Source of the DNA: Myxococcaceae bacterium
GTDB taxonomy: Bacteria; Myxococcota_A; Polyangia; Polyangiales; Ga0077539
Assembly (NCBI GenBank): GCA_004297725.1
Contig: SCUS01000042.1
Location: 1,048-65,047, forward strand
Reading direction: 5' to 3'
Length of the DNA: 64,000 bases
Below, piece after piece: positions 6,351 through 31,841 of this stretch. Numbering within the stretch: the first letter of the stretch is position 1; each line of letters starts with the position of its first letter. A program made the translations under genes and the position numbers. The notes below the pieces were generated by a model that searched no databases, was not told the origin of the DNA, and was given only the letters and a program-made list of their open reading frames with translations.

Positions 6351-7775
<1,425 letters not shown>

Positions 7776-7800
7776 AGCAGTCTCGTCAGCTCCTCTGTTT

Positions 7801-8184
<384 letters not shown>

Positions 8185-13526: not shown

Positions 13527-15632
13527 TCATCGAGTGAGGTAGGTGCCCCGGCCGGCGTAGGCGCTCCAGTACTGCTGCCCGATGGTGGTGTACGTGAAGC
13601 GGTTGAAGTCGAAGCCGTTGAGGCGGAGGCCGACCAGGGAGAGGTTGAGCGGAGAGCCGCTCGGCAGGTCGCTCAATCCCATCAACGAAGACAGGTCGGG
13701 GTACTGGAAGGTGCGCTCGGCGCCAGGGGCGATGTGCTGCCAGGAGCTTCCGGCCCACTGCATGGTGAAGAGCAGCAGGTCGGGCGACGAGCCCTCGATG
13801 GCCACGCGCACGGTGCGGTCGGTCGGCAGGCGCGCGCCCGCGGTGGGGGCGGTCATCCGGGGGATGCCCAGCCAGCCGCGCACCCGCACGGTCTCGTCGG
13901 GCGAGGTGATGCCCGAGAGCACGAGGCCGGTGCAGGGAGCGGGGGTGTCCTGGAAGGCCGTCGGGCCGGTGACGGCGCCCGACGCGAGGCGGGCGTGGAT
14001 GGTGAGCCGGGCGTCGGCGAGGTTGCGGTTGAAGGCCGGCAGACCCGACAGGCGATAGGCGCCGCTGTCGAGCCCGGTGACCGTCGCGTGGGGCATCGGC
14101 ATCACCCCTTCGCCGCCGAGGTCGATGAAGGCGCTCGCGTGAAACTGGTCGGGCGCGTCGACGTCGGTGCCCTCGAGCGGAGCGACCTCGAGCGGGGTCT
14201 CGTGGTCGAGGGGGATGTTCATGTCGATGACGACGTTTTCGATCGTCGCCCGGGGAGCCCCGAGGACGCTGCGGGCCACGCCCATCACCCACGGGGTGAA
14301 GCGCACCGGGGTCATGGAGCCCGCCGGGACGACGTTCTCCAGACCCGCGAGCGCGTAGACGGCCACCGCGGCGGGGCGCGCCTGGAGCTGGAAGGGATAG
14401 CCGCGGCCGCCGCCGGTGGCGGGGACGATCTCCAGCACCTGATCGCGCTGCTGCGCGAGCGCGGCGCCGGTGGGGTCGGCGGTGAAGATGTCCGGGCGGG
14501 AGACCCAGACGTAGGCCACCCGGCGGAAGCCCTCGCGGGGCTCCGGGATGTTCGACCAGGGGTTGGGGCCGAACTCGTTGGAGCCCGTCCAGACGAGCTC
14601 GCCCGAGATGGTGGCGGGGTAGACCGGGCGCTGCGGCATGCCCATCGGCATCCCGGGGCTGCCGCAGCCGGGGATCATCAACGGCTGCAGGTAGATGGTC
14701 GCGTTGCGGGCGTCGAAGGACTGGATCGTGGTGGTGGTGTGGCAGCGCTCCGAGGCGGTCACCGTCACCGGGGGGCGAAGCATCGGGGGAGAGAGGGTCA
14801 CCTGGCCGCGAGCGCTCGTCTGGCCTGCGCTCGGCGGCACGGCGCCGGGCTCGTTGTTGAGGAAGACGAAGGCCGAGGGCACCGGGTCGCCGGACATCGC
14901 ATCGAGCACCGTCACGGTGATGCTGCCCGCGAGCGTCCCTCCGGAGAGGCCGCCGCCGACGCTGTCGGCGCTGTCGGCGTAGGTGTAGCCGTCGGTGATG
15001 GAGAGCTGCTCGTCCTGGTTGTCGAGGGCGACCTCGACGCGGCCGTCGGGGTGCGCGGGCGTGAGGCAGGAGAGCAGCTCCGGCCCGGTGACCATGAGCC
15101 CGGTGCAGGGCGCTCCGTCGAAGGTCACCCGCATGCCGTCGCGGAAGTGGGTGCCGAGGCCGTGAACGCTCACCCTCGCTCCGCCCGTCGTGGGGCCGAG
15201 CGGCGGGTCGACGTAGAAGCTGTCATAGCGGTAGCCCCGGGGGAGCGTGCCCGTGCGGCCCGCGATCTCGACCTCGACGTCGACCTCCCCGGCGCGCCCG
15301 GCGGGGGTGCGCACGGTGATGCGGTTGCGGTCGACGAAGGTGGTGTAGCGGGGCTGCACCAGGTTGCCGCCGAAGCGCACGACGGCGTCTTCGGTGAAGT
15401 TCGAGCCGCGCAGCGTGACCTCGGTGCCGCCGAGGAAGGAGCCGTGCCCTGGCTGCACGCCCACCAGCGTCGGGGCGGGCATCGGGCGGGCGTCGGGCCC
15501 GGCGTCCACCCGGGCGTCGGCGCCGGCGTCGACGCGCTCGGGGGGCAGGGTCAACGCCTCTTCCGCGCACCCGCCCAGCAGTCCGAACGCGGCGAGAGAG
15601 AAAATACACCGACGGGTAAAGGCGACGCGCAT
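13527..15632 (-). CDS. Lipoprotein with two N-terminal IPT/TIG domains and a large uncharacterised C-terminal region
   Basis: Signal/lipobox LLGGC. IPT-like segments VGVQPGHGSFLGGTEVTLRGSNFTEDAVVRFGG...VDVEV and VDPPLGPTTGGARVSVHGLGTHF...VEVAL. Start taken at ATG 15632 (MRVAFTRR). Confidence 0.7.
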   Translation of the reverse strand: MRVAFTRRCIFSLAAFGLLGGCAEEALTLPPERVDAGADARVDAGPDARPMPAPTLVGVQPGHGSFLGGTEVTLRGSNFTEDAVVRFGGNLVQPRYTTFVDRNRITVRTPAGRAGEVDVEVEIAGRTGTLPRGYRYDSFYVDPPLGPTTGGARVSVHGLGTHFRDGMRVTFDGAPCTGLMVTGPELLSCLTPAHPDGRVEVALDNQDEQLSITDGYTYADSADSVGGGLSGGTLAGSITVTVLDAMSGDPVPSAFVFLNNEPGAVPPSAGQTSARGQVTLSPPMLRPPVTVTASERCHTTTTIQSFDARNATIYLQPLMIPGCGSPGMPMGMPQRPVYPATISGELVWTGSNEFGPNPWSNIPEPREGFRRVAYVWVSRPDIFTADPTGAALAQQRDQVLEIVPATGGGRGYPFQLQARPAAVAVYALAGLENVVPAGSMTPVRFTPWVMGVARSVLGAPRATIENVVIDMNIPLDHETPLEVAPLEGTDVDAPDQFHASAFIDLGGEGVMPMPHATVTGLDSGAYRLSGLPAFNRNLADARLTIHARLASGAVTGPTAFQDTPAPCTGLVLSGITSPDETVRVRGWLGIPRMTAPTAGARLPTDRTVRVAIEGSSPDLLLFTMQWAGSSWQHIAPGAERTFQYPDLSSLMGLSDLPSGSPLNLSLVGLRLNGFDFNRFTYTTIGQQYWSAYAGRGTYLTR

Positions 15633-15832
15633 GGGCGGATGAGCTCCTCGCGGGCGAGTATCCGGGAGTCGCACCCCCGAGCGCAACGCGCTCACCGGCG
15701 AAGCCCTGCGCCCCGCCGCTCCCCCTCCATTGGCGATATCGGTGCTTGACCTACATCGGCACCATGCCTTAGAAAGCGCCGCAAGCGGCGGCCACTTCGG
15801 TCGCGCGCCCCTAAAGAACGGTGGGTGCTGTC

Positions 15833-17455
15833 ATGGGAGCTCGACTGAAGCGATTCGGCTACGGGGTGTCTTGCGTGGCGCTGGTGCTCTCCGGGTGCGC
15901 CACCGACGAGGCCCTGCTGGAGGGCGACGACACCGAGTCGCCGACCGACCTCACGGTCAGCGAGCTCACCGGCGCCAACGCGGTGGGCCGCAACGCCACG
16001 GTGCAGAGCTACGTGCTGGTGCGTGTCGGCGCGAGCGACAGCGAGATCCAGCGCGCGGCGGTGCAGCAGCTCCGTCCCCTCTTCGGCGCCATGAAGGCCC
16101 ACGACATCGGCCTCGGCAACCGGCTCGACTCCCCGACCGCGACGAGCTTCATCGACGCCAGCACCTTCGTGCGCGACACCGTCGACGTGATCGACCCGGC
16201 GCACCCCGAGACCCGCGTCTCGCAGATGCAGCGCGTGCGCTTCACCTACCGCGATCGCGCGGTGGTCAATCTCCGCCACCAGTCGCGGCGCGCCTGGTCG
16301 ACCAGCTCGCTCTTCGGCGACTACAGCTCGCACGCGAGCGAGATCGTCCAGCAGTGCCAGAGCGAGCACCAGGACTGGGGCGCGTCGGGCATCTGGTACA
16401 ACTTCGAGCCGCACCTGAGCGCGTGTCAGTCGCTCATCAACGCCGAGGTCACCCGGCTCGCGGCGGAGCGGCGTCGCCTCCGTAACGGCGACCGCGAGAT
16501 CACCGTCGGGGAGAGCACCCGCTGGTTCACCCCCATCACCATCAAGCTCACGGCGATCTCCCGCACCGAGACCAAGTACCCCGACTACCACCGCCTCTGG
16601 GACGACGGTCGTCTGGTGATCGGTGCGTACTTCGGGGAAGACAAGCACGACGACGCCAACGACTACGGCGCGCGCAACCTCTTCCAGTACGTTCGCGCGG
16701 TGCTCCAGGCGCGGCCCGAGCTGCGGGCCTCGGCGCCGGGCACCGACCTCACCACGGTCTCCTTCGGCGGCGCGACCATCAGCAACGTCACGCCCCTCCA
16801 GGTCGCCCAGTGGATCGTCGACAAGAGCAACTACCCCGCGCAGGTGCCGTTCGCGATGCGCGACGCCTTCCGCCTGGCGGTGATTCGTCAGTGGCGCGAC
16901 AAGACCATCACCTTCGCCGCGCCGGTGAGCGTGTCCATCAACGGCGCCGCTCGCGCCGGCACCGCCGAGGTCCGCGTGTTCTACGGCGACGAGGAGAGCT
17001 TCAGCTCCGGCGCCGTGCAGCGCTACCAGGCGGCCTTCCGCGAGGTCGACGTCTTCCAGTACACCGGGCACTCGCACCTCGGGTCGGGCCCGCTCGACGC
17101 CCGTAACTACAGCGCAGCGAGCTTCCCCAATCGCTATCAGATCCTGATGGTGAACTCGTGCGTGTCGTTCAACTACTACAACGCGTACTTCGATATGCAC
17201 CCCGGCGGCACCGCCAACCTGGACACCGTGACCAACGGCCTCCCGGTCTACCTCGAGGGCTCCGGGCTCTCCGCGGGGCTCTTCGCGGTGGCCTTCCTCG
17301 ACGGCCGCTTCCGCTCCTACGCCGACATCCTCGGCTCGATGCGCGTCGACCTCCCCTGGGAGCGCGGACATGACGCCAACCGCGTCGCCGACGGGGAGAC
17401 CGACAACACCTTCACGCCGACCCGTCAGCGCATGACGCTGAGCTTCACCCGCTAG
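15833..17455 (+). CDS. Lipoprotein with a C-terminal caspase/gingipain-like (clan CD) His-Cys dyad signature
   Basis: Lipobox LSGC. A hydrophobic strand plus His-Gly (VDVFQYTGHSHLG) is followed 30 residues later by a hydrophobic strand plus Ser-Cys (YQILMVNSCVSF). The start could also be GTG 15821. Confidence 0.65.
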   Translation: MGARLKRFGYGVSCVALVLSGCATDEALLEGDDTESPTDLTVSELTGANAVGRNATVQSYVLVRVGASDSEIQRAAVQQLRPLFGAMKAHDIGLGNRLDSPTATSFIDASTFVRDTVDVIDPAHPETRVSQMQRVRFTYRDRAVVNLRHQSRRAWSTSSLFGDYSSHASEIVQQCQSEHQDWGASGIWYNFEPHLSACQSLINAEVTRLAAERRRLRNGDREITVGESTRWFTPITIKLTAISRTETKYPDYHRLWDDGRLVIGAYFGEDKHDDANDYGARNLFQYVRAVLQARPELRASAPGTDLTTVSFGGATISNVTPLQVAQWIVDKSNYPAQVPFAMRDAFRLAVIRQWRDKTITFAAPVSVSINGAARAGTAEVRVFYGDEESFSSGAVQRYQAAFREVDVFQYTGHSHLGSGPLDARNYSAASFPNRYQILMVNSCVSFNYYNAYFDMHPGGTANLDTVTNGLPVYLEGSGLSAGLFAVAFLDGRFRSYADILGSMRVDLPWERGHDANRVADGETDNTFTPTRQRMTLSFTR

Positions 17456-18288
17456 CGCTGCTCCTCGGGCACCCAGTACGTGTCCCGCCCGCCGATCTTG
17501 ATGACCTGCACCGCGCGCCCCGCCGGGTCGCTCTCCTTCCGATAGACCTTCATCACGTCGGTGTAGTCCAGGTCGCTGGCGATCACCGCGGCCATCAGGT
17601 CGACCACCGCGCCGTGCAGCACCGCCGCCTCCGTGGGGGTCACCGCGTTGGCCGCCCGGTTGGGGGCGATCTTCGCCCGGTAGAGCGCCTCGCACGCGTA
17701 CATGTTGCCAATGCCCGCCTGGTGACCCTGGTCGAGCAGTATCTCCTTCACGGCCTTTCGAGAGCCCGAGAGCGATCTTCGTAGCGAGTCCACCGTCCAG
17801 ACCTGTCGGTAGGCGGGGTCGGACTCCTCGGTGATGAGCACGTCGGGGCCGAGGGCCTTGAGCTCTTCGCACAGGGCGCTGGTGATCCCAGGGAAGGCGT
17901 GCACCTTGCCGCGGCGCTCGGGCTCGTTGAACTCCAGCCGACGGCCACGGGCCACGAGCCAGAACGAGCTGGCCTTCTTGTCCGGTGGCGACAGGTGGTG
18001 TCGATAGTTGGAGACATAGGGCTCATCGGACATCGTCCAGCGCCCGGCGTGCATCAGGTGCGAGGTGACCGTGCCGGTGGAGAGGGCCATCACGATGTGC
18101 TTGCCCCGCTGGGTGACCGAGGAGAGCGTCGCGCCGCGGAAGAACGCGTCGAGCTTCGCCTTGCGCTCGGGGTCGGTCTTCATCTCCGGGAAGTGCCCGC
18201 CGAAGTGGCCGTGGTCTTCGATGACCCAGCCGGTGACGCGCTCTCGAAGCCAGACGACCTGACGATGGACCTCGGGGAATTCAGGCAT
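17452..18288 (-). CDS. Fpg/Nei-family DNA glycosylase/AP lyase, zincless-finger variant
   Basis: N-terminus MPEFPEV (catalytic Pro2/Glu3). H2TH motif LLDQGHQAGIGNMYACEALYRAKI. The C-terminus GRDTYWVPEEQR sits where family members have the Cys4 finger. AAGGAG lies 7 nt upstream of ATG 18288. Confidence 0.85.
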   Translation of the reverse strand: MPEFPEVHRQVVWLRERVTGWVIEDHGHFGGHFPEMKTDPERKAKLDAFFRGATLSSVTQRGKHIVMALSTGTVTSHLMHAGRWTMSDEPYVSNYRHHLSPPDKKASSFWLVARGRRLEFNEPERRGKVHAFPGITSALCEELKALGPDVLITEESDPAYRQVWTVDSLRRSLSGSRKAVKEILLDQGHQAGIGNMYACEALYRAKIAPNRAANAVTPTEAAVLHGAVVDLMAAVIASDLDYTDVMKVYRKESDPAGRAVQVIKIGGRDTYWVPEEQR

Positions 18289-18311
18289 GACGGTGCTCCT
18301 TGGAAGTGGGT

Positions 18312-19970
18312 TCAGCCGTTCCAGTCGACGCGGAGGGATTGGAGCCACGAGGCGCGAGCGGCCAGCACCTCATCGGAGTAGAGGCCCGGCGCGTCGTCGA
18401 GGCGGGCTTCCTGGATGGTCCCGGTGGCGGCGTCGACCACGGAGAGCACCAGCACCCCGTTGGAGCGCACGTCGAGGCGCACCTCCGCGCGAGCGCCGTC
18501 GGGCATCGGCTGGGGGAAGGTCATCCGGTACTCGCCCACCCTCGTCGCCTCGCGCTCGCTGCGGCCCTCGAAGACCTCCACGGGCAGCACGCTCGACCCG
18601 CCGCGGACGCTGAACGTCCGTCGCCCCACGAAGGGGGTCGCCGTCCCCGCGGGCACCAGCGGGATCAGCACCGCCCGACGCCCGCCGGGGGACTCCGGGG
18701 AGGGCTCCCAGGCGCGCACCGAGAAGGTGTCGGGCACCACGCCGCTCAGCGCGACGCCCACCCGGGCGCCCCCCTCCGCGAGGGCCGCGCCGTGGATGGC
18801 CGCCCCCGAGGCGACGATGGTCAGCGGGTTCAGCGGGTGACCGGGATCGTCGTGGATACGCACCCTTGGGCAACGCTCGCGCATCCGTTGTTGGAGGGGC
18901 CAGAGCAGCGACGAGCCGCCCGTAAGCAACACCTCGTCGAGGGAGCTCCAGTCCAGCGAGGCCCGGCGGAGGGCCTCCTCGGCGCAGGCCATGGCGCGGT
19001 CGAGCTCGCCGCCGATGGAGCGGGAGAGCTCGGCGAGGGAGAGCTCGAGGGTGACCTCCTCGCCTTCGGTGTCCTGATCGAAGACCGGGGTGAACTTCCG
19101 GCGGCGCGAGCGGGAGAGCGGTGAGGGGTCCGTTCCGGCGTCGGTGTTGAGCGAGATCTTGAACCACTCGGCCAGCTCGAGCAGGCGCTCACGGGTGGAC
19201 TCGTTCACCGCCGCGAGGCTGAACGCATGATCCGAGGCGCGCTCGGCGTACTGGGTGACGAGCGCGTCGCGGATGCGCTGGTCGATGGCGAGCCCGCCGA
19301 GCTGCACGCCGTAGGAGTCGATCGCGTGGAGCTGCGCCACGCCCGGTCCCCCCTCGCGGCGGAGCAGGGTGACGTCGAGGGTTCCTCCGCCGAAGTCGAA
19401 GACCATGAAGGTCTGCGATGTCCCTTGAGCGCCGACGGCTCTCGCGTGGAGCCCATAGGCCCAGCCCGCCGCGTCGGGCTCGGTGATCATTCCCCACAAC
19501 GGGAGCCCGGCCATCTTCGCGGCCTGCCCCGTGGCGAGCTTCTCCCGGTTGCGGAAGCGCTGCGGGTGCGACACCACCACGCCGTCGAGCGGGGGCAGAG
19601 CGGGGCGCGCGCGCACCATCTCCGCGAGCGTGCGGAGGATCACCGCCGCGATGTCCGTGGAGTAGAGCTCGCGCTCTCCGAGGCGCCACGGAGGGCCGGC
19701 GTAGACCGAGCTTCCGACGCCCATGTGGTTCTTCGATCCGCGCACCAGCACCACGTCGCCGGGGGCTCTCTCGGCCTCTCCGACGAGCTCGCGGTAGGCC
19801 GACGGGGCGCGCGATCCGACGACCGCGCGGGGGCCGCCTCGGGAGGTGAGCAGCACCAGCGAGGCGAGGGTGGGGCCGCCGCCTTCGAGGGTGACCAGCC
19901 GGGGCTGGCCGCGCTCGACATAGGCGACGGAGCAGAAGGTGGTTCCGAGGTCGATGCCGTAGACCGCCAC
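18312..19970 (-). CDS. Hsp70-family ATPase (HscC/DnaK-like, short C-terminus)
   Basis: Phosphate-1 motif YGIDLGTTFCSVAY, phosphate-2 motif MVFDFGGGTLDVTLL and adenosine motif VLLTGGSSLLWPLQ. Beta-sandwich substrate-binding-like C-terminus. GTG start. Confidence 0.85.
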   Translation of the reverse strand: MAVYGIDLGTTFCSVAYVERGQPRLVTLEGGGPTLASLVLLTSRGGPRAVVGSRAPSAYRELVGEAERAPGDVVLVRGSKNHMGVGSSVYAGPPWRLGERELYSTDIAAVILRTLAEMVRARPALPPLDGVVVSHPQRFRNREKLATGQAAKMAGLPLWGMITEPDAAGWAYGLHARAVGAQGTSQTFMVFDFGGGTLDVTLLRREGGPGVAQLHAIDSYGVQLGGLAIDQRIRDALVTQYAERASDHAFSLAAVNESTRERLLELAEWFKISLNTDAGTDPSPLSRSRRRKFTPVFDQDTEGEEVTLELSLAELSRSIGGELDRAMACAEEALRRASLDWSSLDEVLLTGGSSLLWPLQQRMRERCPRVRIHDDPGHPLNPLTIVASGAAIHGAALAEGGARVGVALSGVVPDTFSVRAWEPSPESPGGRRAVLIPLVPAGTATPFVGRRTFSVRGGSSVLPVEVFEGRSEREATRVGEYRMTFPQPMPDGARAEVRLDVRSNGVLVLSVVDAATGTIQEARLDDAPGLYSDEVLAARASWLQSLRVDWNG

Positions 19971-19987
19971 TGGGGACTACCGGGGGC

Positions 19988-21469
19988 CTATTGCCGGGTG
20001 ACCCGGAGCGTCACGCGGTCGAGGTAGCCCTGTCGGTTGACGCCCGCGGCGATGACCGTGCGCGCCAGGTCGGCGAGCCCGAAGACCTTCTCCGGGCTGT
20101 CGTAGGAGGTCTCCGCGCTGCCGGTGGTGAACCACTCCGAGGCCATGGCGGCGGGGTTGACCGTCCATCGTCCGTAGAGCCCGAAGTTGTAGTCGCGGGT
20201 GCCGGGAGGGAGCTGCCGGCAGTCGATGCCGGTGCGCACCGTGAAGGGTCCGGGCAGGGTGCGCATGGCCTCTCGGGGCATGAGGAAGAAGCCGTCGAGG
20301 GGGGTGGGCGACTGCCAGGTGAGCGAGACCGTCGCGAGGGGCGGCGGGGGCATCGGGCCGAACTGGATCACGCCGTCGAGGCGGATGCGCGCCTGGCCGT
20401 GGACATCACAGCGGGCGGGGATGACCAGGGTCTCGCCCTGGCGCACCGGGCGGTCGACGAGGACGCTGTCCGCCGCGCCGCCGCTCTCGTTGCGCACGGC
20501 GTTGAGCACGCGCGCGGTGAGCCCCTCGAAGGGAGACCACTCGCTGAAGGCGATGTCGGCGGGCGACTGCCGCAGGGTGATGCGCTCGACGGAGAGGCGG
20601 CGCTGCATCTCGCCCACGAGCTGTCGCCCCCGGGGGATGTCCCGGGTGAGCACGAAGAGCAGCAGCGGGCGGGCGCCCTGCCAGCGGAAGGCGCCGGACT
20701 CGCCGTTCATGGCCGGAGAGCTGGCGGAGAAGCGCACGCCGTTCCACTCGGGGTCGGTGTTGAGGGCGGCGACGTGCTGGGTGATGCGCGACCACATGGG
20801 CGGGTCGAGCCTTCGCTCGGCGAAATAGCGGCCGTCGAAGGGCAGGATGAGGCGCCCCACCCAGAGGCCGTAGCCCTCCTCGACGCGCTGGCGGAGCAGG
20901 GCCGCGAGGCAGCTCGGGTCGGCGCCCGCGGTGCAGGCCACGTCGCCGCTCGCCCCCGGCTGGAAGGGCGTGCTGGTGCTCTGGAAGCCGTCGGTCACCA
21001 GCACGGTGACGTTGTAGGGGTCGAGGGGGTCGGGCTGCTGGAGGTCGGGCCTCGGGGCGCGCGGCGGCCGTCGGAGCGCGAGGTGCAGCGCCGAATACCC
21101 ACCACGGTATGTCGCAGGCAGCCGGGCCTGCTGGGCGGTGAGCTGCGGGGCCTCGCAGTGGACGGCGGTGTCGACGGCGCAGCGCTGGAAGGGGTTGTTG
21201 AGCTGGAGCGCCGAGAGGGAGGCCTCGATGACCTGGGCGTGGAGGGTCTGCAGGGCGGTGGAGCGGGTCGAGGTGAAGCCCCGGATGCTCTCGGAGACGT
21301 CGACGAAGACCTGGGCGCCCCGGCCGGGAGGCGCCGCGGGGGTTGCGGCGGGGGCGACAACGGAGGGCGCGGCGGGCGAGGGCGCGGGGGCCGGAGAGGG
21401 CGAGCGGGAGGGGTTGCACGCGGCCAGGGTGAGGAGCGCGGCGGCGGCGAGGGGGCGGGCGGCGAGCAC
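19988..21469 (-). CDS. Lipoprotein with a von Willebrand factor A (vWA)-like domain
   Basis: MIDAS-type DxSxS (VFVDVSESI) and VLVTDG lie about 100 aa apart. Lipobox LTLAAC. I preferred GTG 21469, which is 8 nt after the upstream stop and gives MLAARPLAAAALLTLAAC. The alternative start 21502 would overlap the upstream gene by 26 nt. Confidence 0.65.
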   Translation of the reverse strand: MLAARPLAAAALLTLAACNPSRSPSPAPAPSPAAPSVVAPAATPAAPPGRGAQVFVDVSESIRGFTSTRSTALQTLHAQVIEASLSALQLNNPFQRCAVDTAVHCEAPQLTAQQARLPATYRGGYSALHLALRRPPRAPRPDLQQPDPLDPYNVTVLVTDGFQSTSTPFQPGASGDVACTAGADPSCLAALLRQRVEEGYGLWVGRLILPFDGRYFAERRLDPPMWSRITQHVAALNTDPEWNGVRFSASSPAMNGESGAFRWQGARPLLLFVLTRDIPRGRQLVGEMQRRLSVERITLRQSPADIAFSEWSPFEGLTARVLNAVRNESGGAADSVLVDRPVRQGETLVIPARCDVHGQARIRLDGVIQFGPMPPPPLATVSLTWQSPTPLDGFFLMPREAMRTLPGPFTVRTGIDCRQLPPGTRDYNFGLYGRWTVNPAAMASEWFTTGSAETSYDSPEKVFGLADLARTVIAAGVNRQGYLDRVTLRVTRQ

Positions 21470-21476
21470 CCGGGCG

Positions 21477-21881
21477 TCAGTGGGAGGTGACGACGGCGGC
21501 ATCGACGTACTCGCGGTTTTCCACGGCGGCCTCGATGAGGGAGGCGGCTTCGATCTCCAGGCGCTGGTCGCGCGGGCCGCGGACGACGTAGACCGCGCGG
21601 CCGTTCTCGACGGTCTCGCGGACGGAGACCTCGTCCTGCAGCTCGACCGGGGCGAGCAGGGTGCCTTGCCGCACGACGGCCACGTAGGAGTAGTGGCCTC
21701 GGGCGCGGCCGCCGACGAGCACCGACCAGAGGATCTGCCCGTGCTGGATGCTCACCTGCCCGACGGGCTCGCGGTGCTGGTCGGCGTAGCAGAGGCAGTA
21801 GCGCACGCCCGGAGGGAGGGAGCAGAGGTCCTCGGGCTTGGCGTGGGGGCAGCGGACGGAGACGCGGAGTGGGCGTGCCAT
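21477..21881 (-). CDS. Hypothetical 134-aa protein (Cys cluster CPH-x6-C-x9-C-x-C at N-terminus)
   Basis: Very strong GC3 bias in this frame. Non-degenerate amino-acid composition. Operon position. No recognised family motif. Confidence 0.55.
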   Translation of the reverse strand: MARPLRVSVRCPHAKPEDLCSLPPGVRYCLCYADQHREPVGQVSIQHGQILWSVLVGGRARGHYSYVAVVRQGTLLAPVELQDEVSVRETVENGRAVYVVRGPRDQRLEIEAASLIEAAVENREYVDAAVVTSH

Positions 21882-21894
21882 GGCGGTATTGGGT

Positions 21895-22206
21895 CTACTC
21901 GATGGTCCAGAGGCGGCGGGCGAGCACGTGCTCCATGAAGAGCTCGAGGGGAGAGAAGCGAAGCCAGCGGGTGGTCCCGGGCGGAACGAGCGGCAACGGG
22001 GCGATGGCGTTCTTGGCGAGCTGGGCCTCGAGGGCCATCTTGGTGGCCTCGAGACCGGGGTCGATCTTCGAGGGCGACGGCAGCTCCGAAGGGAGCTTCG
22101 GGGTCTCCAGAATGCCCACCTGGACCTTCTGGGCGATGGGCTCCTCGCCGAAGCGGTAGTGCGCTCGCGTACCGATCACCGGCGGGGTCTTCGAGTCCTG
22201 GCTCAT
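21895..22206 (-). CDS. Hypothetical 103-aa protein
   Basis: Only the last 103 codons of the 1094-aa track ORF look coding (MSQDSKTPPVIGTRAHYRFGEEP...). The ATG overlaps the upstream stop (ATGA at 22203-22206). High GC3. Confidence 0.55.
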   Translation of the reverse strand: MSQDSKTPPVIGTRAHYRFGEEPIAQKVQVGILETPKLPSELPSPSKIDPGLEATKMALEAQLAKNAIAPLPLVPPGTTRWLRFSPLELFMEHVLARRLWTIE

Positions 22207-25200
22207 CGGGTTCCTCCGAAGGGTGGCATGCCGGGCATGGGGGGCATCCCGGGCATGGGGGGCATGCCGCCCGGGGTCGGGTCGGGCGGCGGGGTGAGCA
22301 TGGCGGTGAGCTGCTCCCATCGCTGCCCGGCGAGGAAGACCTCCGCGGTCTGTCCGCGCTGCGTCGCCTGCGACGACACGAAGGTCATCTGCTGGTTCTG
22401 CACCCAGGCGAGCTGCTCCGGGGTCATGCCCGGCATCACCATCGTCTGCATCAGCTTCTGCCACTGCTGCGCGGCCAGCATCCGCTCGGGAGACTGACCC
22501 GACTGGGCGGCCTGCGTGACCACCTGCTGCCAGAGCTGCCGCTGCGCGAACTCGACCGCCGTGACCCCCATCGTCGCGGCCTGCGCCGCGAGCATCGGCC
22601 ACTGCTGCACCAGCGCGAAGGCCACCATCTCCATCGGCATCGCGAAGCCCGGGAAGGCCCCCATGGGCGAGGGCATCGCCGCGGGCATCGCGGGCGTCGC
22701 GGGCATCGCAGGCATCGTGGGCATCGAGGGCATCGCGAGGGGGAGCATCGCGGGCACCGCCACCGGCGCGACGGGCGCTTCCGCGGGCGGAACGAAGACC
22801 TCGAACTGGCTCGGGTCGTCCTGCGCGGGCGGACCGAAGGGGCGGTACCAGGGCACGCGGCGGCTCTGGTCGTTGAGCCAGAGGTCGAAGCCCAGCACGC
22901 CGTGACGCTCGGGCGCGCGGTTCTTGAAGAAGCGGGCGGCGTCTTCGGTGCTGTGGTGGGCTCCGAGCAGCCCGAGGGCCACGGCGGCCTTGCGGTGCGA
23001 CCCCTCCGCGGGGAGCACGAAGGAGATGTCGAAGGTGAGCCTCGGGTCGAGCAGGCTGATGTCGCCGTCGCTGATCTCCCCGGCGATGTCGGTCTCGCGG
23101 AGCAGGTCGAGCAGCCGCTCGTAGACCCGGTGGGCCATCATCTGCTCGACGGTCTTCATGCCGTCGCGGACGATGTCTCCGAAGCCCCAGCCGTTGCCGA
23201 GCAGCACCAGGCAGAACTCCACCACGCGCTTCTGCTGGGGGCCCTTGTTGATCCCGAGGATCCACCGTCGCTGGGCGCCTGATCCGGAGAGCGAGAAGAG
23301 GCGGTTGTGCGAGAGGTCGAGCGCGCCCTGGGCGGTGCGCCCGTGCTCCAGGCAGACGCCCGCGAGGGTGCGCGCCACATACTCGACGATGTAACCGATG
23401 AAGACCCGGGCGCGGCGCTCGGCGGTGGCCTTGCGCGCCTCGGCGATGACGTGCGGCGACTCCAGCAGCGCCTTGGCCGACTGGCTCTGGCGCACCGCGC
23501 TCGCGAGCCGGGTGTACGAGCCGACGCCGGGCATCACGCAGGCGCCGCGGCGGTCGCCCTCGCCGGCGCCGACCAGCGAGCGGAGGTACACGCTGCCGCC
23601 GAAGAAGATCGAGGAGCTGAATACGTGGGGGTGTAAGCCGGAGTGGCCCTGGCTGTTGGTGCGGGCGAGGGTGTCGTCGACCAGCACCTCCAGCGATCCG
23701 CCGCCGAGGTCGAGGTAGACGCGGAACATCTTGTCGGACGAGGCGTGCCCCGCGGCGGCCTGGGCCTCGTCGATGAGGGGCGTCGCGGGGAAGACGAAGT
23801 CCGCGCCGGTGAGCTGCTTCAGGCGAGTCCCTGCCTCCTCGGCGGCGAGGCGCAGGGTCTCCAGGTCGCCCTCGTCGAAGGCCAGCGGGAAGCTGTAGTT
23901 GACGTTGACCGTGCGGGGCGCGGCCTCCTCCTCGGAGAGCAGCGACGCGGCGGTCATCAGCATCGCTCCCTCGAGGAAGCGCGACTGGAGCGCCTGCACG
24001 ATCTCCCGGCGGGCGAGGGCGCTCTTGTCCTTCTCCACGGCGCGCAGCCACTTGAACTCGCTCACCGTGTGCTCGGACGAGACCGCGCTGGAGGCGCCGC
24101 GCAGGGGCACGCCGAAGTCCTTGCCGAAGGAGAGGGCGTTGATGGCCGACTCGGAGGCCACGTCGGTCCACTTGCGGACGCAGCCGAGCTCGCTCGGGAG
24201 CAGGTCGTGCGAGGGGCCGGACCACTCGCCGCCGGGCCAGAGGTCGATGCCGCGGTGGATGGTGGGCGGGCCCCCGTCGAGGAGGTTGAGCGTGGTGGAG
24301 GTGCGGTCGCGGCTGCGCTCCGGGGCCACGCACTGCAGGCTCCCGTCGCGCCGCTTCACGGCGATGACCGTGTTGGAGGTTCCGAAGTCCACGCCGAAGG
24401 ACCAGGTGTCGCTCGGGAGCGCGTCGCCCGGAGGAGCGAGCGGGAAGAGCCCTCCGCCGACGGCCTCGGCGCCGCCTCCCTGCGTGGCCTGCATGAACTC
24501 CACGCTCACCCACGAGGGGCGTCCCTTTCGGGTGGCGCCGACGTAGCCCGTGGGTCCGCTCTCCCCCTCCCGGCCGACCTCCTGGTCGAGCGCGACCACG
24601 TCGAGGCGGGTCTCGCTGGTGGGCCGGCCGTCGACGTCGCTCGGGGGCACGAGCATCCGGGCGCGCAGCATCCTGCCCTGGGAGAAGAGCGCCATGCCCT
24701 CCTCGGTGGCCGCCTGGATGCCCACCACGTAGTAGCGCCACGCGTTGGTGGGGCGCTTGAGGTTGGGCCACACGCGCAGGGTGACGCCGCGGAAGGCCAC
24801 CGCGTCGACGTCGCCCGCGTTGGGAGAGAAGGGGTTGGCCGGGAGCAGGTCGCACTCGTAGGTGGGCCACTCGGTCTGCTTGAGCCCTCGCAGCGGGAGC
24901 ACGCACTGGTAGCGGGACTTGCCGCGCTCCTGGATGACCCGGCCGAAGAGGTGGGGCTTCTCCCGGGCGAGGCGCACCTGCGCCGGGTCGAGGCAGTCGA
25001 GGTACTCGGGCATCACCGGGAGCACCGGGATCTGCCGCTCGCCGCCGGACATGAACACCGGCACCGAGCGGAAGCAGATCTGCTCCTTGGAGAGCGACTC
25101 GATCTCGCTCTCGACGCGCAGCTTGAGGCGGCCGACGGTGATGACGTTGGCGGCTCCGGCGACGCCGCCCTCGCGCCACCGCACCCAGCGCCCGGAGTCG

Positions 25201-25364
25201 GCGCGAGGGAAGACCCGCTCCAGCGCGCGGATCTTCACCCGGTCGCTGCGGCAGATCGGGCAGTGCAGCTTGCGGGGCTCGGCGCCCTTGCGCGCGAAGA
25301 GCACCGTCATCTCCAGGCGGCTCAGGTCGAAGCCGCAGTGCTCGCAGTGATTTTCTTGCTCCAT
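22203..25364 (-). CDS. Large zinc-ribbon / ASKHA (Hsp70-actin-like) ATPase protein with a Met/Pro/Gln-rich C-terminal tail
   Basis: N-terminal CEHC-x26-CPIC zinc ribbon. ASKHA phosphate motifs WSFGVDFGTSNTVIAV and FRVYLDLGGGSLEVLV. C-terminal ~230 aa contain (MPx)n and GGMPPMPGMPPMPGMPPFGG repeats. Confidence 0.75.
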   Translation of the reverse strand: MEQENHCEHCGFDLSRLEMTVLFARKGAEPRKLHCPICRSDRVKIRALERVFPRADSGRWVRWREGGVAGAANVITVGRLKLRVESEIESLSKEQICFRSVPVFMSGGERQIPVLPVMPEYLDCLDPAQVRLAREKPHLFGRVIQERGKSRYQCVLPLRGLKQTEWPTYECDLLPANPFSPNAGDVDAVAFRGVTLRVWPNLKRPTNAWRYYVVGIQAATEEGMALFSQGRMLRARMLVPPSDVDGRPTSETRLDVVALDQEVGREGESGPTGYVGATRKGRPSWVSVEFMQATQGGGAEAVGGGLFPLAPPGDALPSDTWSFGVDFGTSNTVIAVKRRDGSLQCVAPERSRDRTSTTLNLLDGGPPTIHRGIDLWPGGEWSGPSHDLLPSELGCVRKWTDVASESAINALSFGKDFGVPLRGASSAVSSEHTVSEFKWLRAVEKDKSALARREIVQALQSRFLEGAMLMTAASLLSEEEAAPRTVNVNYSFPLAFDEGDLETLRLAAEEAGTRLKQLTGADFVFPATPLIDEAQAAAGHASSDKMFRVYLDLGGGSLEVLVDDTLARTNSQGHSGLHPHVFSSSIFFGGSVYLRSLVGAGEGDRRGACVMPGVGSYTRLASAVRQSQSAKALLESPHVIAEARKATAERRARVFIGYIVEYVARTLAGVCLEHGRTAQGALDLSHNRLFSLSGSGAQRRWILGINKGPQQKRVVEFCLVLLGNGWGFGDIVRDGMKTVEQMMAHRVYERLLDLLRETDIAGEISDGDISLLDPRLTFDISFVLPAEGSHRKAAVALGLLGAHHSTEDAARFFKNRAPERHGVLGFDLWLNDQSRRVPWYRPFGPPAQDDPSQFEVFVPPAEAPVAPVAVPAMLPLAMPSMPTMPAMPATPAMPAAMPSPMGAFPGFAMPMEMVAFALVQQWPMLAAQAATMGVTAVEFAQRQLWQQVVTQAAQSGQSPERMLAAQQWQKLMQTMVMPGMTPEQLAWVQNQQMTFVSSQATQRGQTAEVFLAGQRWEQLTAMLTPPPDPTPGGMPPMPGMPPMPGMPPFGGTR
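22225..22272. repeat. Coding tandem repeat, 18-bp unit x ~2.7 (GGCATGCCGGGCATGGGG)
   Basis: Direct reading. It encodes the PMPGMPPMPGMPP tail of the 1053-aa protein on the minus strand. Confidence 0.9.
22671..22757. repeat. Coding imperfect 9-bp tandem repeat (GGGCATCGC-like, ~9 copies)
   Basis: Direct reading. It encodes AMLPLAMPSMPTMPAMPATPAMPAAMP on the minus strand. Confidence 0.85.
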
Positions 25365-25460
25365 CCGTGCGCTCGGCGCGGGAGGATAGCCGAGATGCTC
25401 CTCGGCGGGGGGCGGAGGGAATTTCCAGCGGTCTCTACGACCACCGCGGCGACCGCCAGA

Positions 25461-25500
25461 GGCCCGCGAAGGCCCGCGAAGGCCCTCGAAGGCCCGTCAA
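25461..25500. repeat. Four tandem 10-bp repeats GGCCCnnnAA in a divergent intergenic region
   Basis: The copies ggcccgcgaa ggcccgcgaa ggccctcgaa ggcccgtcaa are read directly. They lie 97-136 bp upstream of the minus-strand operon start (25364) and 86-125 bp upstream of the plus-strand gene (25586). Confidence 0.9.
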
Positions 25501-25585: not shown

Positions 25586-27529
25586 ATGCGCAGCCCATCA
25601 CGCGGTCGGGGTCGCGGCCTGTGGGCGATCGCCCGCAGCCTGATGCTGTGCGCCGCCCTCGCGGGCTGTCGCTCCGAGGAGGAGCCCGCGCTGCGCCCGC
25701 CAGCGAGCCTCGGCGACGGCTTCGTGGACATCACCCCTGCGCTCCCGCCCGGCTTTCCCAGCGCGGTGGGCCGCGACGACGAGCCCATCGGCACCGCGGG
25801 GGCGCTCGCCGACCTCGATGGCGATGGCCTCGCCGAGCTGCTGCTCTCCGTCGCCAACGACCGCGCTCCCTCCTCGGGGACCGCGCTGGTCTACCGCTTC
25901 GACGAGGCCGCATCCCGCTTCGTGCCGGGCCCGAGCGTGCCCCTCTCCGACCGGTCGCTGGTGTTGGCCGCCGCGGACCTCGACGGCGACGGCGTCGCGG
26001 ACCTGCTCACCGGCATGGAAGATCCGCGGGTGGTGTGGGGCGAGCGCGGCGGCGCCTTCGGCTCCTCGACGCAGCTCGAGTCGGCTTCGCTGGTCCGGGG
26101 CGGCACCTCGATCGCGGCCGCGGCGCTCGAGGACCTCGACGACGACGGCTGGCTCGACGTGCTGCTGGGCAACGCGCGGTGCTGCCCCACCTGCCAGGCG
26201 CTGCACCCCTTTCTGCGCACCGGTCCTCGCGCCTTCGTCGATCGCCCCGACCTCGTCCTCGAGAACCCGGTCGGGGGGCTCTACGCCGTGATGGCCGCGA
26301 CGCTCGGAGCCCGCGGCCGGATGCTGGGCGCCCTCGGCGACGGCTGCGGCGAGCGGCCGCCGGCCTTCTTCCGGGCGTCGTCGCTGGGCGCCGACGGTCT
26401 GCCGCGCTTCTCGGCCTTCGACCCGACCCCGCCCGACGCGGTGTTTCGCCACGAGGCGAGCGCCGAGCGGCCGTGTCCCTCCATCGACTGCCGATCGCCG
26501 ATGGGCGCGGCGTGGGGCGACCTCGACGGCGACGGCCAGCTCGACCTCACGGTCAGCCTCGACCCCCTCCAGGCCTTCTTCCGCGGCGGCCCGGAGTGGC
26601 TCATGGCCGACCGCAGCGCGGGCACCGCGATGGAGGCGATCAGGGCCGACGGCGGTCGCGCCATGAAGCCCTGGGGCACCGCGCTCATCGACCTCGACCT
26701 CGACGGCCGCTCGGACGTGGTGGCCGTGCACGGCGACGACCACGAGTCGGCCACCAACCCGGCCTCCTTCGTCGGTCCGCAGCACGCGACGGTGCACTGG
26801 AACGGCGGCGACTTCCACTTCGCCGACCTCACCGCGCTCTCGCACCTCGGGCGACGGGGACAGTGGCGCTCGCTCTTCGTGGGCGACCTCGACCGGGACG
26901 GCGACGCCGACCTGATCGTGGGCGGGCTCGGCGAGGCGCCGAGGGTCTATCGCAACGCGATCGCGACCGGCAACGCGGGCCTCGCGCTGAGGCTGCGGGG
27001 TACCACGAGCAACGCGCTCGGGATCGGCGCGAGGGTGACGGTCTGGCCGTCCGAGGCGGGGCCCTCGCAGTCGTACCCGGTGGGAGGCAGCGCGTCGCCC
27101 TACGTGGTCTCCGACCCGCTGGTCTTCGTCGGCCTCGGCGGATCGAGGGCCGCGGCGAGGGTGAGGGTGACCTGGCCCTCGGGCACCGTGCAGGAGCTGC
27201 GAGGGCTGCGCGCAGGCACGGTGCACCTCGTCGAGGAGCCACGGCTCATCGACATCACCCCGTCCACGAGGCACCTGCCCGCGGACGGCCGCTCCGAGGC
27301 GGTGCTGCGCATCACGCCCCGGGCTCCCGACGGTTCGGTGAGGACCGAGGCCCGCGTCGAGGCCGAGTTGGTCTACGGCGCGGGGCGGCTCGCGGCGCCC
27401 GCGGCGAGGGAGGGAGACGCCTGGGTGGTGCGCGTCGTGGCCCCGTCGGCGCAGGGCTCGGGCGTGGTGGTCGTGCGCGTGGACGGCGTCGCGGCGGGCG
27501 TGCGCCCCCGCCTCTGGTGGGACGGTTGA
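25586..27529 (+). CDS. CRTAC1-family lipoprotein (FG-GAP/VCBS repeats plus ASPIC/UnbV domain)
   Basis: Lipobox LAGC. Repeated D-x-D-x-DG motifs (DLDGDGLAELL, DLDGDGVADLL, DLDDDGWLDVL, DLDGDGQLDL, DLDLDGRSDVV, DLDRDGDADLI). UnbV-like segment GIGARVTVW...RVRVTWPSGTVQEL. Confidence 0.85.
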   Translation: MRSPSRGRGRGLWAIARSLMLCAALAGCRSEEEPALRPPASLGDGFVDITPALPPGFPSAVGRDDEPIGTAGALADLDGDGLAELLLSVANDRAPSSGTALVYRFDEAASRFVPGPSVPLSDRSLVLAAADLDGDGVADLLTGMEDPRVVWGERGGAFGSSTQLESASLVRGGTSIAAAALEDLDDDGWLDVLLGNARCCPTCQALHPFLRTGPRAFVDRPDLVLENPVGGLYAVMAATLGARGRMLGALGDGCGERPPAFFRASSLGADGLPRFSAFDPTPPDAVFRHEASAERPCPSIDCRSPMGAAWGDLDGDGQLDLTVSLDPLQAFFRGGPEWLMADRSAGTAMEAIRADGGRAMKPWGTALIDLDLDGRSDVVAVHGDDHESATNPASFVGPQHATVHWNGGDFHFADLTALSHLGRRGQWRSLFVGDLDRDGDADLIVGGLGEAPRVYRNAIATGNAGLALRLRGTTSNALGIGARVTVWPSEAGPSQSYPVGGSASPYVVSDPLVFVGLGGSRAAARVRVTWPSGTVQELRGLRAGTVHLVEEPRLIDITPSTRHLPADGRSEAVLRITPRAPDGSVRTEARVEAELVYGAGRLAAPAAREGDAWVVRVVAPSAQGSGVVVVRVDGVAAGVRPRLWWDG

Positions 27530-27553
27530 CGCGACGGCTCCGGCGCGTCGCGT
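27529..27553 (+). terminator. Candidate hairpin immediately after the CRTAC1-like gene stop
   Basis: Stem ACGCGAC (27529-27535) / GTCGCGT (27547-27553) with an 11-nt loop. No U-tract, so this is weak. Confidence 0.25.
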
Positions 27554-27574
27554 AGCTCCCGCGGCAGCACCGAA

Positions 27575-27586
27575 CCCCGATCGGGG
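27575..27586. promoter_or_regulatory. Perfect 12-bp palindrome CCCCGATCGGGG upstream of the lipid-type cluster
   Basis: Read directly. It lies about 87 bp upstream of the SDR gene start and is a possible operator. No protein partner is identifiable from sequence. Confidence 0.2.
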
Positions 27587-27672
27587 AGATCGTGTCCAGC
27601 GCGCGACGCGCCGTACCCGGCGCTTGATCATCGTCATTTTGGATGCGGGCGGCCGGAGCAGCATCCGGCGCG

Positions 27673-28725: not shown

Positions 28726-28741
28726 AAGCGCGATCGCACCG

Positions 28742-29038
28742 ATGACCACCAACGCCCTGCTCGTCGACCCCGCAGCCCGTGCCGTCCTGTCCGATGACCA
28801 GATCCGCGCGCGCGCCGTCCATCTCCTGGCGACCATCCTCGAGCGCGACCCCGAGACGGTGCAGCAGGCGCACTCGCTCCGCGCCGACCTCGGCATGGAC
28901 TCGCTGAGCGCGCTGGAGTTTCTCTCGTCGCTGAGCCACGAGTTCGACATCGACCTGGAGGTCGAGGAGACCTACGGGCTCACCACCCTCAACGAGGTGG
29001 TGGCGCTCGTCACCCAGAGGGTGCGGGGGTCGCTGTGA
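28742..29038 (+). CDS. Acyl carrier protein (stand-alone)
   Basis: 98 aa with the phosphopantetheine attachment motif DLGMDSLSALEF. Only the 3' third of track ORF 28316-29038 is coding. Confidence 0.85.
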   Translation: MTTNALLVDPAARAVLSDDQIRARAVHLLATILERDPETVQQAHSLRADLGMDSLSALEFLSSLSHEFDIDLEVEETYGLTTLNEVVALVTQRVRGSL

Positions 29039-31829: not shown

Positions 31830-31841
31830 CGAGGCGACGCG

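Follow-up and report, generated by a model that had tools for sequence, protein, structure and literature searches.

The FtsZl1-vWA(-OmpA) operons have been predicted to remodel membranes (Makarova and Koonin, 2010, Biol Direct 5:33; PMC2875224), and in the supplement of that paper two vWA genes have a DnaK-family gene as neighbour, and an FtsZl1 gene lies next to one annotated as GrpE. We found no later experimental work on these operons in the literature that we searched. Tubulin, vWA and HSP70/GrpE themes also occur in the DO-GTPase/GAP1 conflict systems (Kaur, Burroughs, Iyer and Aravind, 2020, eLife 9:e52696; PMC7159879). Here, we report a computational analysis of a six-gene cluster, G1 to G6, of a Myxococcaceae bacterium (GCA_004297725.1). 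The whole stretch analysed, positions 1,048–65,047 of contig SCUS01000042.1 (64,000 nt), is called the window. An earlier note on this DNA had read the six genes as one undescribed system that joins two Hsp70-type ATPases and a vWA lipoprotein to a DNA glycosylase, and had stated that no system combining Hsp70-type and vWA proteins was described. The latter statement does not stand, as the DO-GTPase paper (PMC7159879) and the FtsZl1 supplement (PMC2875224) show such combinations.

The earlier note had also proposed to look for conservation of the gene neighbourhood, and we observed that this extends well beyond the strain. The conserved unit is G1 to G4, usually together with G5, and its synteny is kept at identities between 98% and ∼25%, in the Myxococcota and also in the Acidobacteriota. 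Because the distant relatives carry a tubulin/FtsZ-like GTPase, we place the module in the FtsZl1-vWA group, where it appears to be a tubulin-less offshoot of that operon family, new as a variant of a class already predicted. The features of the locus are as follows (GC3, G+C content at third codon positions).

22203..25364, minus strand: G1, 1053 aa, zinc ribbon and Hsp70-type ATPase domain (GC3 0.96)
22845..24407, minus strand: predicted ASKHA (Hsp70-type) ATPase domain of G1, from motifs, profile, AlphaFold2 (AF2) model and Foldseek
21895..22206, minus strand: G2, 103 aa (GC3 0.92)
21477..21881, minus strand: G3, 134 aa, Cys cluster (GC3 0.93)
19988..21502, minus strand: G4, 504 aa, or 492 aa from the GTG at 21466; putative vWA-like lipoprotein
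18312..19970, minus strand: G5, 552 aa, lidless Hsp70 (Pfam HSP70)
17452..18288, minus strand: G6, 278 aa, zincless Fpg/Nei DNA glycosylase/AP lyase
25383..25388, minus strand: candidate operon promoter, −10-like element TATCCT in a conserved GGCTATCCT block ∼20 nt upstream of the G1 start

Conservation of the module and its tubulin-led relatives

We scanned 185,579 species genomes and looked up homologues. This yielded about 30 loci, which were compared by tblastn and by clustering of open reading frames (ORFs). Within the genus (about 85–98% identity), all six genes were found in the metagenome-assembled genome (MAG) AalW_18-Q3-R10-53_BATAC.29 (locus L008), G1 to G5 followed by Fpg in L036, and G1 to G5 without Fpg in L034 and L035 (∼89% identity in these five genes). 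The Polyangiales loci of 50–76% identity (L003, L004, L007, L009, L011 and L012) have G1-G2-G3-G4 only, and a TIG-domain or invasin-like Ig protein is encoded after G4. A third tier of 25–35% identity includes Pyrinomonadaceae (Acidobacteriota). There, G1 is accompanied by a small ORF, G4 and a lidless Hsp70 in L002, L013, L014 and L016. In L015, G1 is joined by a small ORF and the Hsp70 gene, G4 being located upstream. In L001, L017 and the P0084 contig, the G4 gene is convergent with a G1-G2-G3-Hsp70 series.

In this third tier, the loci with enough upstream sequence have two extra genes on the same strand directly upstream. The product of the first one (450–500 aa) carries the tubulin T1 and T4 loops (GGTGQH; GS.VGGTGAG) and gives repeated sub-threshold matches to Pfam Tubulin and Tubulin_2. 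Nearly all of its PDB matches are FtsZ, TubZ, RepX or CetZ, and 20 of the 68 members of its family carry a precomputed PF13809 or PF00091 assignment. The second gene (570–640 aa) had no matches and is fused to the tubulin-like gene in L018. Loci reached via distant G4 homologues displayed the same order, namely a tubulin-like gene, a protein with a G1-like Hsp70 nucleotide-binding domain (NBD) and a vWA lipoprotein; in L025, genes for a coiled-coil and an OmpA protein come next in the operon. A tubulin-like gene was found neither in the window (by tblastn) nor within 10 kb upstream in relatives of at least 50% identity. FtsZl1/Tubulin_2-vWA operons are widespread and were predicted in 2010; the window module and its relatives define an accessory gene set, made up of a Zn-ribbon/Hsp70-NBD protein, its detached tail, a Cys-knuckle protein, a vWA lipoprotein and a lidless Hsp70, that survives the loss of the tubulin, which points to a functional core not needing tubulin.

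We also recorded lineage-specific features of individual relatives. In L008 (13434–16942), G3, G4 and G5 each find their match split between two frames, and these breaks look like assembly frameshifts and not like pseudogenes. Resolvase, IS66 and helix-turn-helix (HTH) genes lie beside the module on the P0084 contig (∼35%-identity clade). Two TerD genes and a MoxR-type AAA+ gene are located just downstream of the module, on the opposite strand, in L001, a Polyangiales-like MAG (15614–18227), and are not conserved elsewhere. In the Acidobacteria-type locus L002 (15924–18227), a 767-aa protein with an N-terminal zinc ribbon and a 261-aa ORF follow the Hsp70 on the same strand, and these may be extra lineage-specific components.

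Probable operon structure, the glycosylase gene and the flanking genes

The G+C content of the window is about 72%, and long ORFs occur in every frame. The six minus-strand ORFs have GC3 values of 0.88–0.96 with second-position GC near 0.5, and the overlapping alternative frames show the opposite pattern. As this signature fits a genome of 72% GC and the alternatives do not, we accepted the six ORFs as real genes. The ratio of nonsynonymous to synonymous substitution rates (dN/dS), measured against two genus-level relatives, was 0.08–0.36 for all six genes, indicating purifying selection. Therefore, the small ‘orphan’ ORFs G2 and G3, for which a strong coding signal had been noticed earlier, are true genes, and hidden Markov model (HMM) matches show them to be conserved.

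The junctions between the genes are tight. G1 and G2 overlap by 4 nt (ATGA), the spacing is 13 nt between G2 and G3, 17 nt between G4 and G5 and 23 nt between G5 and G6, and an AAGGAG is located 10 nt past the G5 stop. The longest ORF of G4 overlaps G3 by 26 nt; the GTG start at 21466 leaves a 10-nt gap and gives G4 a classic lipoprotein signal. Scans for terminator-like sites or hairpins on the minus strand within the cluster and for consensus sigma-70 promoters found nothing, and such scans are uninformative in a GC-rich genome. Coding signal, dN/dS and junctions agree with the six closely packed genes that the earlier note had delineated. The cluster looks like an operon with no terminator-like site inside, so the co-transcription claimed there is likely, also for G5 and G6. 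Upstream of G1, GGCTATCCT...GCGAGCGCACGGATGGAG is common to the window, L008, L034 and L036, and we infer from it only that the TATCCT element is a candidate promoter of the operon. The same upstream region contains a perfect to near-perfect triple direct repeat, GGGCCTTCG[A/C]G ×3 (25456–25495, minus strand), preceded by CCCTTGACG. As the 98%-identical L008 shares only the CCCTTGACGGGCCTT part, the triple repeat is taken as a local tandem expansion.

The identification of G6 as a zincless Fpg/Nei base-excision enzyme was upheld. It matches PF06831 H2TH at 1.7e-18 (67 bits versus a cutoff of 34.7) and PF01149 Fapy_DNA_glyco at 8.7e-13 (49 bits versus 25.5), and it starts with MPEFPEV, which provides the catalytic Pro2/Glu3 positions. 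There is no Cys in its last 40 residues and there are no C-terminal CxxC pairs, and PF21025 scores 24.4 bits, under its cutoff of 27. The proposed link of this glycosylase to the system failed the neighbourhood test. We found Fpg behind the module only in the window, in L008 (98% identical) and in L036 (one of two ∼90% relatives). L034/L035 do not have it, nor do those of the examined more distant loci whose sequence continues beyond the module. Because Fpg is confined to part of one genus, G6 is read as a recent lineage-specific 3′ add-on that lies, by its distribution, outside the conserved module and is probably co-transcribed with it. Its dN/dS of 0.36 is the highest of the six genes. The plus-strand gene convergent with Fpg (15821–17455; stop regions overlapping by 4 nt) encodes a 544-aa lipoprotein without a family match. 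It is present in L008 and L034/L035 and absent in L036, and so varies independently of Fpg.

On the other flank, a divergent gene for an FG-GAP/ASPIC lipoprotein (25586–27529, plus strand) is located next to G1. In genus-level relatives the module keeps its neighbours, thrB-like and AddA-like genes upstream and a TIG-domain gene downstream. In the window, ∼11 kb (25586–36414), holding the FG-GAP/ASPIC lipoprotein and an 849-aa lipoprotein-like ORF, lie between G1 and the thrB-like GHMP kinase gene (36470–37369). Since this kinase gene almost adjoins G1 in L034 and L036, the block would be an insertion or rearrangement in the lineage of the window. Two large minus-strand ORFs of 1166 and 1150 aa (37408–44327) look like an AddA/AddB-type helicase-nuclease pair; the L034 homologue of the first has UvrD-helicase and PDDEXK_1 matches. 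Downstream, a 722-aa IPT/TIG-domain lipoprotein gene (13527–15695, minus strand) follows the module in the window, in L034–L036 and in L007, there directly after G4, and in the 50%-identity clade invasin-D3/FecR-like secreted proteins take its place. This lipoprotein may be a recurrent extracytoplasmic partner of G4. A 500-aa ORF after a 112-aa P-II-like ORF (6351–8139, minus strand) is, by eye, probably an amtB-glnK pair.

Predicted properties of the module proteins

G1 is composed of a four-Cys zinc ribbon (aa 1–55), a beta-rich domain (aa ∼60–310), an Hsp70-type NBD (aa ∼320–840), a disordered Pro/Met linker (857–907), a well-predicted five-helix Met/Gln-rich bundle (911–1021) and a PPMPGMP tail. 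The CxxC pairs (C7xxC10...C35xxC38) and the DFGTSNT motif quoted in the earlier note are present, as is DLGGGS. In the family alignment, DFGTSNT (D326), DEAxAA (D532-E533), DxGGGS (D552) and LGNGW are invariant, and the phosphate-1, connect and phosphate-2 motifs occur in order. The family comprises 38 clusters at 90% identity in a database of 5.8 billion proteins, and those of its members that are named carry Myxococcales or Deltaproteobacteria MAG annotations.

A phmmer search of the PDB with the single G1 sequence gave nothing useful. The family profile aligned collinearly with Hsp70 NBDs over two stretches, phosphate-1 and phosphate-2 (E 3e-4). Foldseek with the AF2 model (pLDDT 80, pTM 0.73) found Hsp70-family NBDs at E 3.4e-9, with probability 1.0 and a TM-score of 0.45–0.58 on the target. 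Among the 50 best matches 49 belong to the Hsp70 family, including Hsc70, BiP, DnaK and Ssz1 (4gni). MreB/Mbl was a secondary match (Foldseek rank 12, TM-score 0.58), and the profile matches to MreB were weak (E 0.09–0.2). Profile, model and Foldseek bear out the ASKHA/Hsp70 domain recognized in the earlier note, and G1 is predicted to contain an Hsp70-type ATPase domain whose catalytic motifs are intact. It has no Pfam or NCBIfam match and no Hsp70 substrate-binding domain, the linker and the Met/Gln-rich bundle coming after the NBD.

We detected no Walker A motif ([GA]xxxxGK[ST]) in G1, in G5, in the tubulin-like protein of the relatives or in its partner protein, and no transmembrane segment in G1, G2, G3, G5 or G6. 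G1 is predicted to be cytoplasmic. In the ∼35%-identity clade (the P0084 contig; P0030–P0034 in the alignment), G1 ends in a GYF_2-like domain (weak Pfam match) where the window protein has its Met/Gln-rich bundle. Proline-rich peptides are the ligands of GYF domains, and the G1 tail of the window is itself Pro/Met-rich.

The two small proteins are constrained (dN/dS 0.16–0.23 for G2 and 0.10–0.13 for G3). G2 has a C-terminal motif, RW(L/F)RFSP(L/F)E(L/V)F(M/L)E.VLA, and its HMM matches the last ∼55 residues of G1 in L002, L013, L015 and L016. The two segments align collinearly and have P..IDP.L and WF..SP.E..LE..L in common. As the homologous segment ends G1 in these distant relatives, G2 most likely arose by separation of the C-terminal part of G1 and is a partner of it. 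In G3, a Cys cluster at the N-terminus precedes a beta-rich body; the window protein has four Cys, two of which are invariant across eight aligned members. G3 follows G1/G2 in 10 loci, and its HMM weakly matches the small ORF that comes behind G1 in L013 and L015 (E 7e-5 to 9e-5). Against the PDB the G3 profile gave only noise, and there was no Pfam match. Both G2 and G3 may be small cytoplasmic partners of G1. Searches of Pfam, NCBIfam, PADLOC and PHROGs matched none of G1, G2, G3 and G4.

In G4, a lipobox (LLTLAAC, its Cys29 being nearly invariant) is followed by a Pro-rich linker, a vWA-like alpha/beta domain and a Cys-containing, beta-rich C-terminal half. Its one hydrophobic segment is N-terminal, and the predicted lipoprotein signal suggests that it is exported. 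The residues of the metal-ion-dependent adhesion site (MIDAS), D68-x-S70-x-S72 and T170-D171-G172 (DVSES...VLVTDG, as quoted earlier), are invariant or nearly so; D68, S70, T170, D171, G172 and several Cys are invariant in the family. At the position of the middle MIDAS Thr, G4 has YSAL and the aligned distant subgroup A5 has TNL. In the AF2 model (pLDDT 85), residues 63–306 alternate beta and alpha.

The close family of G4 contains 54 clusters, and an exhaustive profile search extended it to 279 representative clusters, the distant members of which carry DxSGSMxGF...GxTxL...TDG. With the profile of these distant members, the top four PDB matches were vWA proteins (8s05_A 1.2e-5, ITIH4 2.5e-4, TRAP and ITIH1), and most of the weaker ones were vWA too (Ro60, integrin alpha-X). 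The hhalign comparison of the G4 family (A2) with subgroup A5 gave a probability of 99.8% over the full length, with the MIDAS positions in register. The Pfam vWA models matched neither G4 nor 30 close relatives, and 1 of 67 distant members matches VWA_3 weakly. The close-family profile found nothing in the PDB, and phmmer with the single G4 sequence nothing useful. On this indirect evidence we accepted G4 as a divergent vWA-like lipoprotein with a MIDAS site. Thus the lipobox and MIDAS of the vWA lipoprotein described earlier stood, with indirect profile support, and Pfam and Foldseek did not support it.

G5 matches PF00012 at 1e-40 (140 bits versus a cutoff of 20.6; residues 3–535) and aligns over residues 4–533 to residues 5–504 of PDB DnaK at 1.7e-34, which covers the NBD and the beta-sandwich substrate domain. 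It ends ∼15 residues past the beta-sandwich and has no helical lid. Therefore, the ‘normal-size’ Hsp70 of the earlier note is right as to the two domains and not as to size (552 aa versus 638 aa for DnaK). Against all NCBIfam equivalogs, G5 scored 66–155 bits with cutoffs of 620–1019. Its closest match was the Hsp70 of L017 (291 bits), compared with 136 bits for DnaK and 110 bits for HscC. The operon-linked Hsp70s of the relatives are all 530–552 aa long; this lidless length and a C-terminal motif are what suggest a common origin. In line with the earlier note, a tblastn search for the J-domain of E. coli DnaJ and for E. coli GrpE found no match at E <1 in the 64-kb window, and neither domain had a Pfam match in the eight window proteins scanned.

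Proposed function, alternatives and comparison with described systems

We favour the reading that the module encodes an envelope-linked two-Hsp70 machine that descends from FtsZl1-vWA operons and has no tubulin, and we would give it about an even chance of being right. G1, with G2 and G3, would pair with G5 as an atypical-Hsp70/Hsp70 couple through an NBD–NBD contact, by analogy with Hsp110-Hsp70 or Ssz1-Ssb, and this pairing would stand in for the J-protein and GrpE that are missing. The couple may spend ATP on holding or remodelling a client on the inner side of the membrane. A candidate binder of hydrophobic or Pro-rich segments is the Met/Gln-rich bundle of helices in G1, and G4 may capture a ligand on the periplasmic side via its MIDAS site. 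The overall role would be in cell-envelope assembly or remodelling, and not in general protein folding or DNA repair. Because the module keeps its place by the thrB-like and AddA-like genes and purifying selection on it is uniform, we favour such a housekeeping role over a mobile defence island.

Several observations weigh against this two-Hsp70 machine. The window module has no membrane-spanning link between the cytoplasmic ATPases and the periplasmic G4, and the small membrane protein of the distant operons is missing in the window. G5 is missing in the 50–76% tier (including L003, L007, L009, L011 and L012), and therefore G1 cannot depend strictly on a dedicated Hsp70. The assignment of G4 to vWA is indirect, and Foldseek with its confident model gave no match below E 1e-3 and no vWA protein in the top 50. 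The matches behind the G2/G1 fusion signal have weak E-values (0.0035–0.23), pairwise scores do not show the operon-linked Hsp70s to be monophyletic, and the FtsZl1 link comes from homologues, the window itself having no tubulin-like gene. We consider it unlikely, in a more specific version, that the core (G1–G3, G5 and G4) is a self-contained machine without J-protein and GrpE, in which G1 regulates or polymerizes with the Hsp70 and drives an event across the inner membrane that was ancestrally tubulin-coupled.

A conflict system (anti-phage or programmed death) of the type described by Kaur and co-workers, where an Hsp70-type NTPase switch and a vWA co-factor gate variable 3′ effectors or sensors, is a tentative and rather improbable alternative. 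The candidate effectors or sensors would be Fpg/Nei, the TIG or invasin-like Ig proteins, or the zinc-ribbon protein. The theme matches the GTPase-centric tubulin/vWA/HSP70 systems (PMC7159879), the genes after G4/G5 differ by lineage, components are lost patchily (tubulin, Hsp70), and one relative (the P0084 contig) lies beside resolvase, IS66-fragment and HTH genes and another (L001) near TerD and MoxR. However, no DO-GTPase is encoded (the conserved components having no Walker A motif), no GAP1 is recognizable by Pfam, there is no nuclease, peptidase, TIR or other classic effector, and G1–G4 have no PADLOC or PHROGs match. Moreover, the neighbours are constant in the genus of the window, although ∼11 kb is inserted before the upstream pair in the window, and the module genes diverge together under purifying selection, which looks vertical and unlike a mobile defence island. 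Quite unlikely, too, is the possibility that G1 forms actin-like (MreB/ParM-type) filaments in a cytoskeletal membrane-remodelling system with an ancestral tubulin, of which the window would be an actin-only remnant. The MreB/Mbl matches of the G1 domain (Foldseek rank 12, TM-score 0.58; profile E 0.09–0.2) fit this possibility, as do the pairing of G1 with a tubulin/FtsZ-family protein, a coiled-coil protein and OmpA in the ancestral operons and the membrane remodelling predicted for FtsZl1 operons (PMC2875224). The profile E-values, though, are two to three orders of magnitude better for Hsp70 NBDs than for MreB, 49 of the 50 top structural matches are Hsp70-family, and a true Hsp70 with a substrate-binding domain travels along.

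That all six genes form a single system, coupling the Hsp70-type ATPases and the vWA protein to base-excision repair via Fpg/Nei, is very improbable. The glycosylase gene is on the same strand, 23 nt from G5, an arrangement recurring in L008 and L036, but it is absent in L034/L035, whose G1–G5 are ∼89% identical, and in the more distant loci extending past the module; G6 also has its own strong ribosome-binding site and the weakest constraint (dN/dS 0.36). Hardly any likelihood is left for an ordinary specialized chaperone operon (HscC/DjlC- or HscA-like) that lies by chance beside unrelated genes. G5 is a bona fide Hsp70 of HscC-like length; against this, its score with E. coli HscC (110 bits) does not exceed that with DnaK (136 bits), the neighbouring genes include none for a J-protein, DUF1266 or Sel1, and the conserved synteny, with G1, G3 and G4 co-occurring with G5 across phyla, contradicts a chance association. 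The earlier note had raised mapping to a known module of HscC type as a way in which its proposal might fall. We found no specific similarity of G5 to HscC, and G1–G4 match none of the libraries.

If the two Hsp70-type proteins do pair as in the favoured reading, the module would be a bacterial counterpart of eukaryotic Hsp110-Hsp70 or Ssz1-Ssb. Should the self-contained machine be real, bacteria would have a so far unrecognized apparatus of the envelope or cytoskeleton in which NTPases of actin/Hsp70 fold and of tubulin fold are joined. The module also adds four protein families without a Pfam, NCBIfam, PADLOC or PHROGs match, two of them with confident structure models. The small operon is suited to biochemistry of ATPase activity, Hsp70 pairing without J-protein or GrpE, and ligand binding by the MIDAS.

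Hsp110-Hsp70 and Ssz1-Ssb (the ribosome-associated complex) are eukaryotic atypical-Hsp70/Hsp70 pairs. As in these, a divergent Hsp70-fold ATPase and a canonical-type Hsp70 are encoded together here, without GrpE, and one of the best structural matches of G1 is Ssz1 (4gni). Unlike them, G1 has a zinc ribbon, a beta-rich domain and a Met/Gln tail in place of a substrate-binding domain, and the heterodimer is a prediction. MoxR-vWA pairs (RavA-ViaA, CoxD-CoxE) consist of an AAA+ ATPase and a vWA partner generally described as cytoplasmic. They resemble the module in encoding a chaperone-like ATPase beside a MIDAS vWA protein; here, however, the ATPase is Hsp70-type, G4 is predicted to be exported, and the cluster has no AAA+/MoxR Pfam match. 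The E. coli HscC-DjlB/DjlC set likewise has a short Hsp70 (∼556 aa) outside the DnaK/DnaJ/GrpE triad, but it includes J-proteins and DUF1266/Sel1 neighbours, none of which occurs here, and G5 has no specific similarity to HscC. On these grounds (110 bits with HscC versus 136 with DnaK, no J-protein, DUF1266 or Sel1 neighbour) we rejected an HscC/DjlC-type operon. CoCoNuT/McrBC-Hsp70 systems were rejected as well, the module having no McrB/McrC and no TerY-P triad.

The DO-GTPase systems share with the module the combination of NTPases, vWA proteins, tubulin homologues and HSP70 with membrane-proximal components; one of their variants has an HSP70 domain without a peptide-binding domain, and their core NTPase has N-terminal zinc ribbons. 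In contrast to them, there is no DO-GTPase pair here, no recognizable GAP1 (no Pfam match suggests one) and no Walker A, and the window yielded neither GrpE nor DnaJ nor an FNIII-repeat protein. In those systems, which are from Firmicutes/Actinobacteria, tubulin and HSP70 are parts of different themes, whereas they are combined in the present family, from Myxococcota/Acidobacteriota. A DO-GTPase system was rejected for the module because the conserved components have no Walker A motif.

Finally, the FtsZl1-vWA operons differ from the window module in that the latter lacks genes for a tubulin-like protein, its partner, OmpA, any GTPase and any kinase, and its vWA lipoprotein escapes all Pfam VWA models. 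The main text of PMC2875224 does not name the G1-type protein, G2 or G3 and does not mention Hsp70. They resemble it in that a tubulin/FtsZ-family gene (PF13809 Tubulin_2 or PF00091) heads the operons to which the distant homologues of G1, G3, G4 and G5 belong, and in having a MIDAS-intact vWA protein, here G4, that is often secreted or membrane-bound, with OmpA in one relative.

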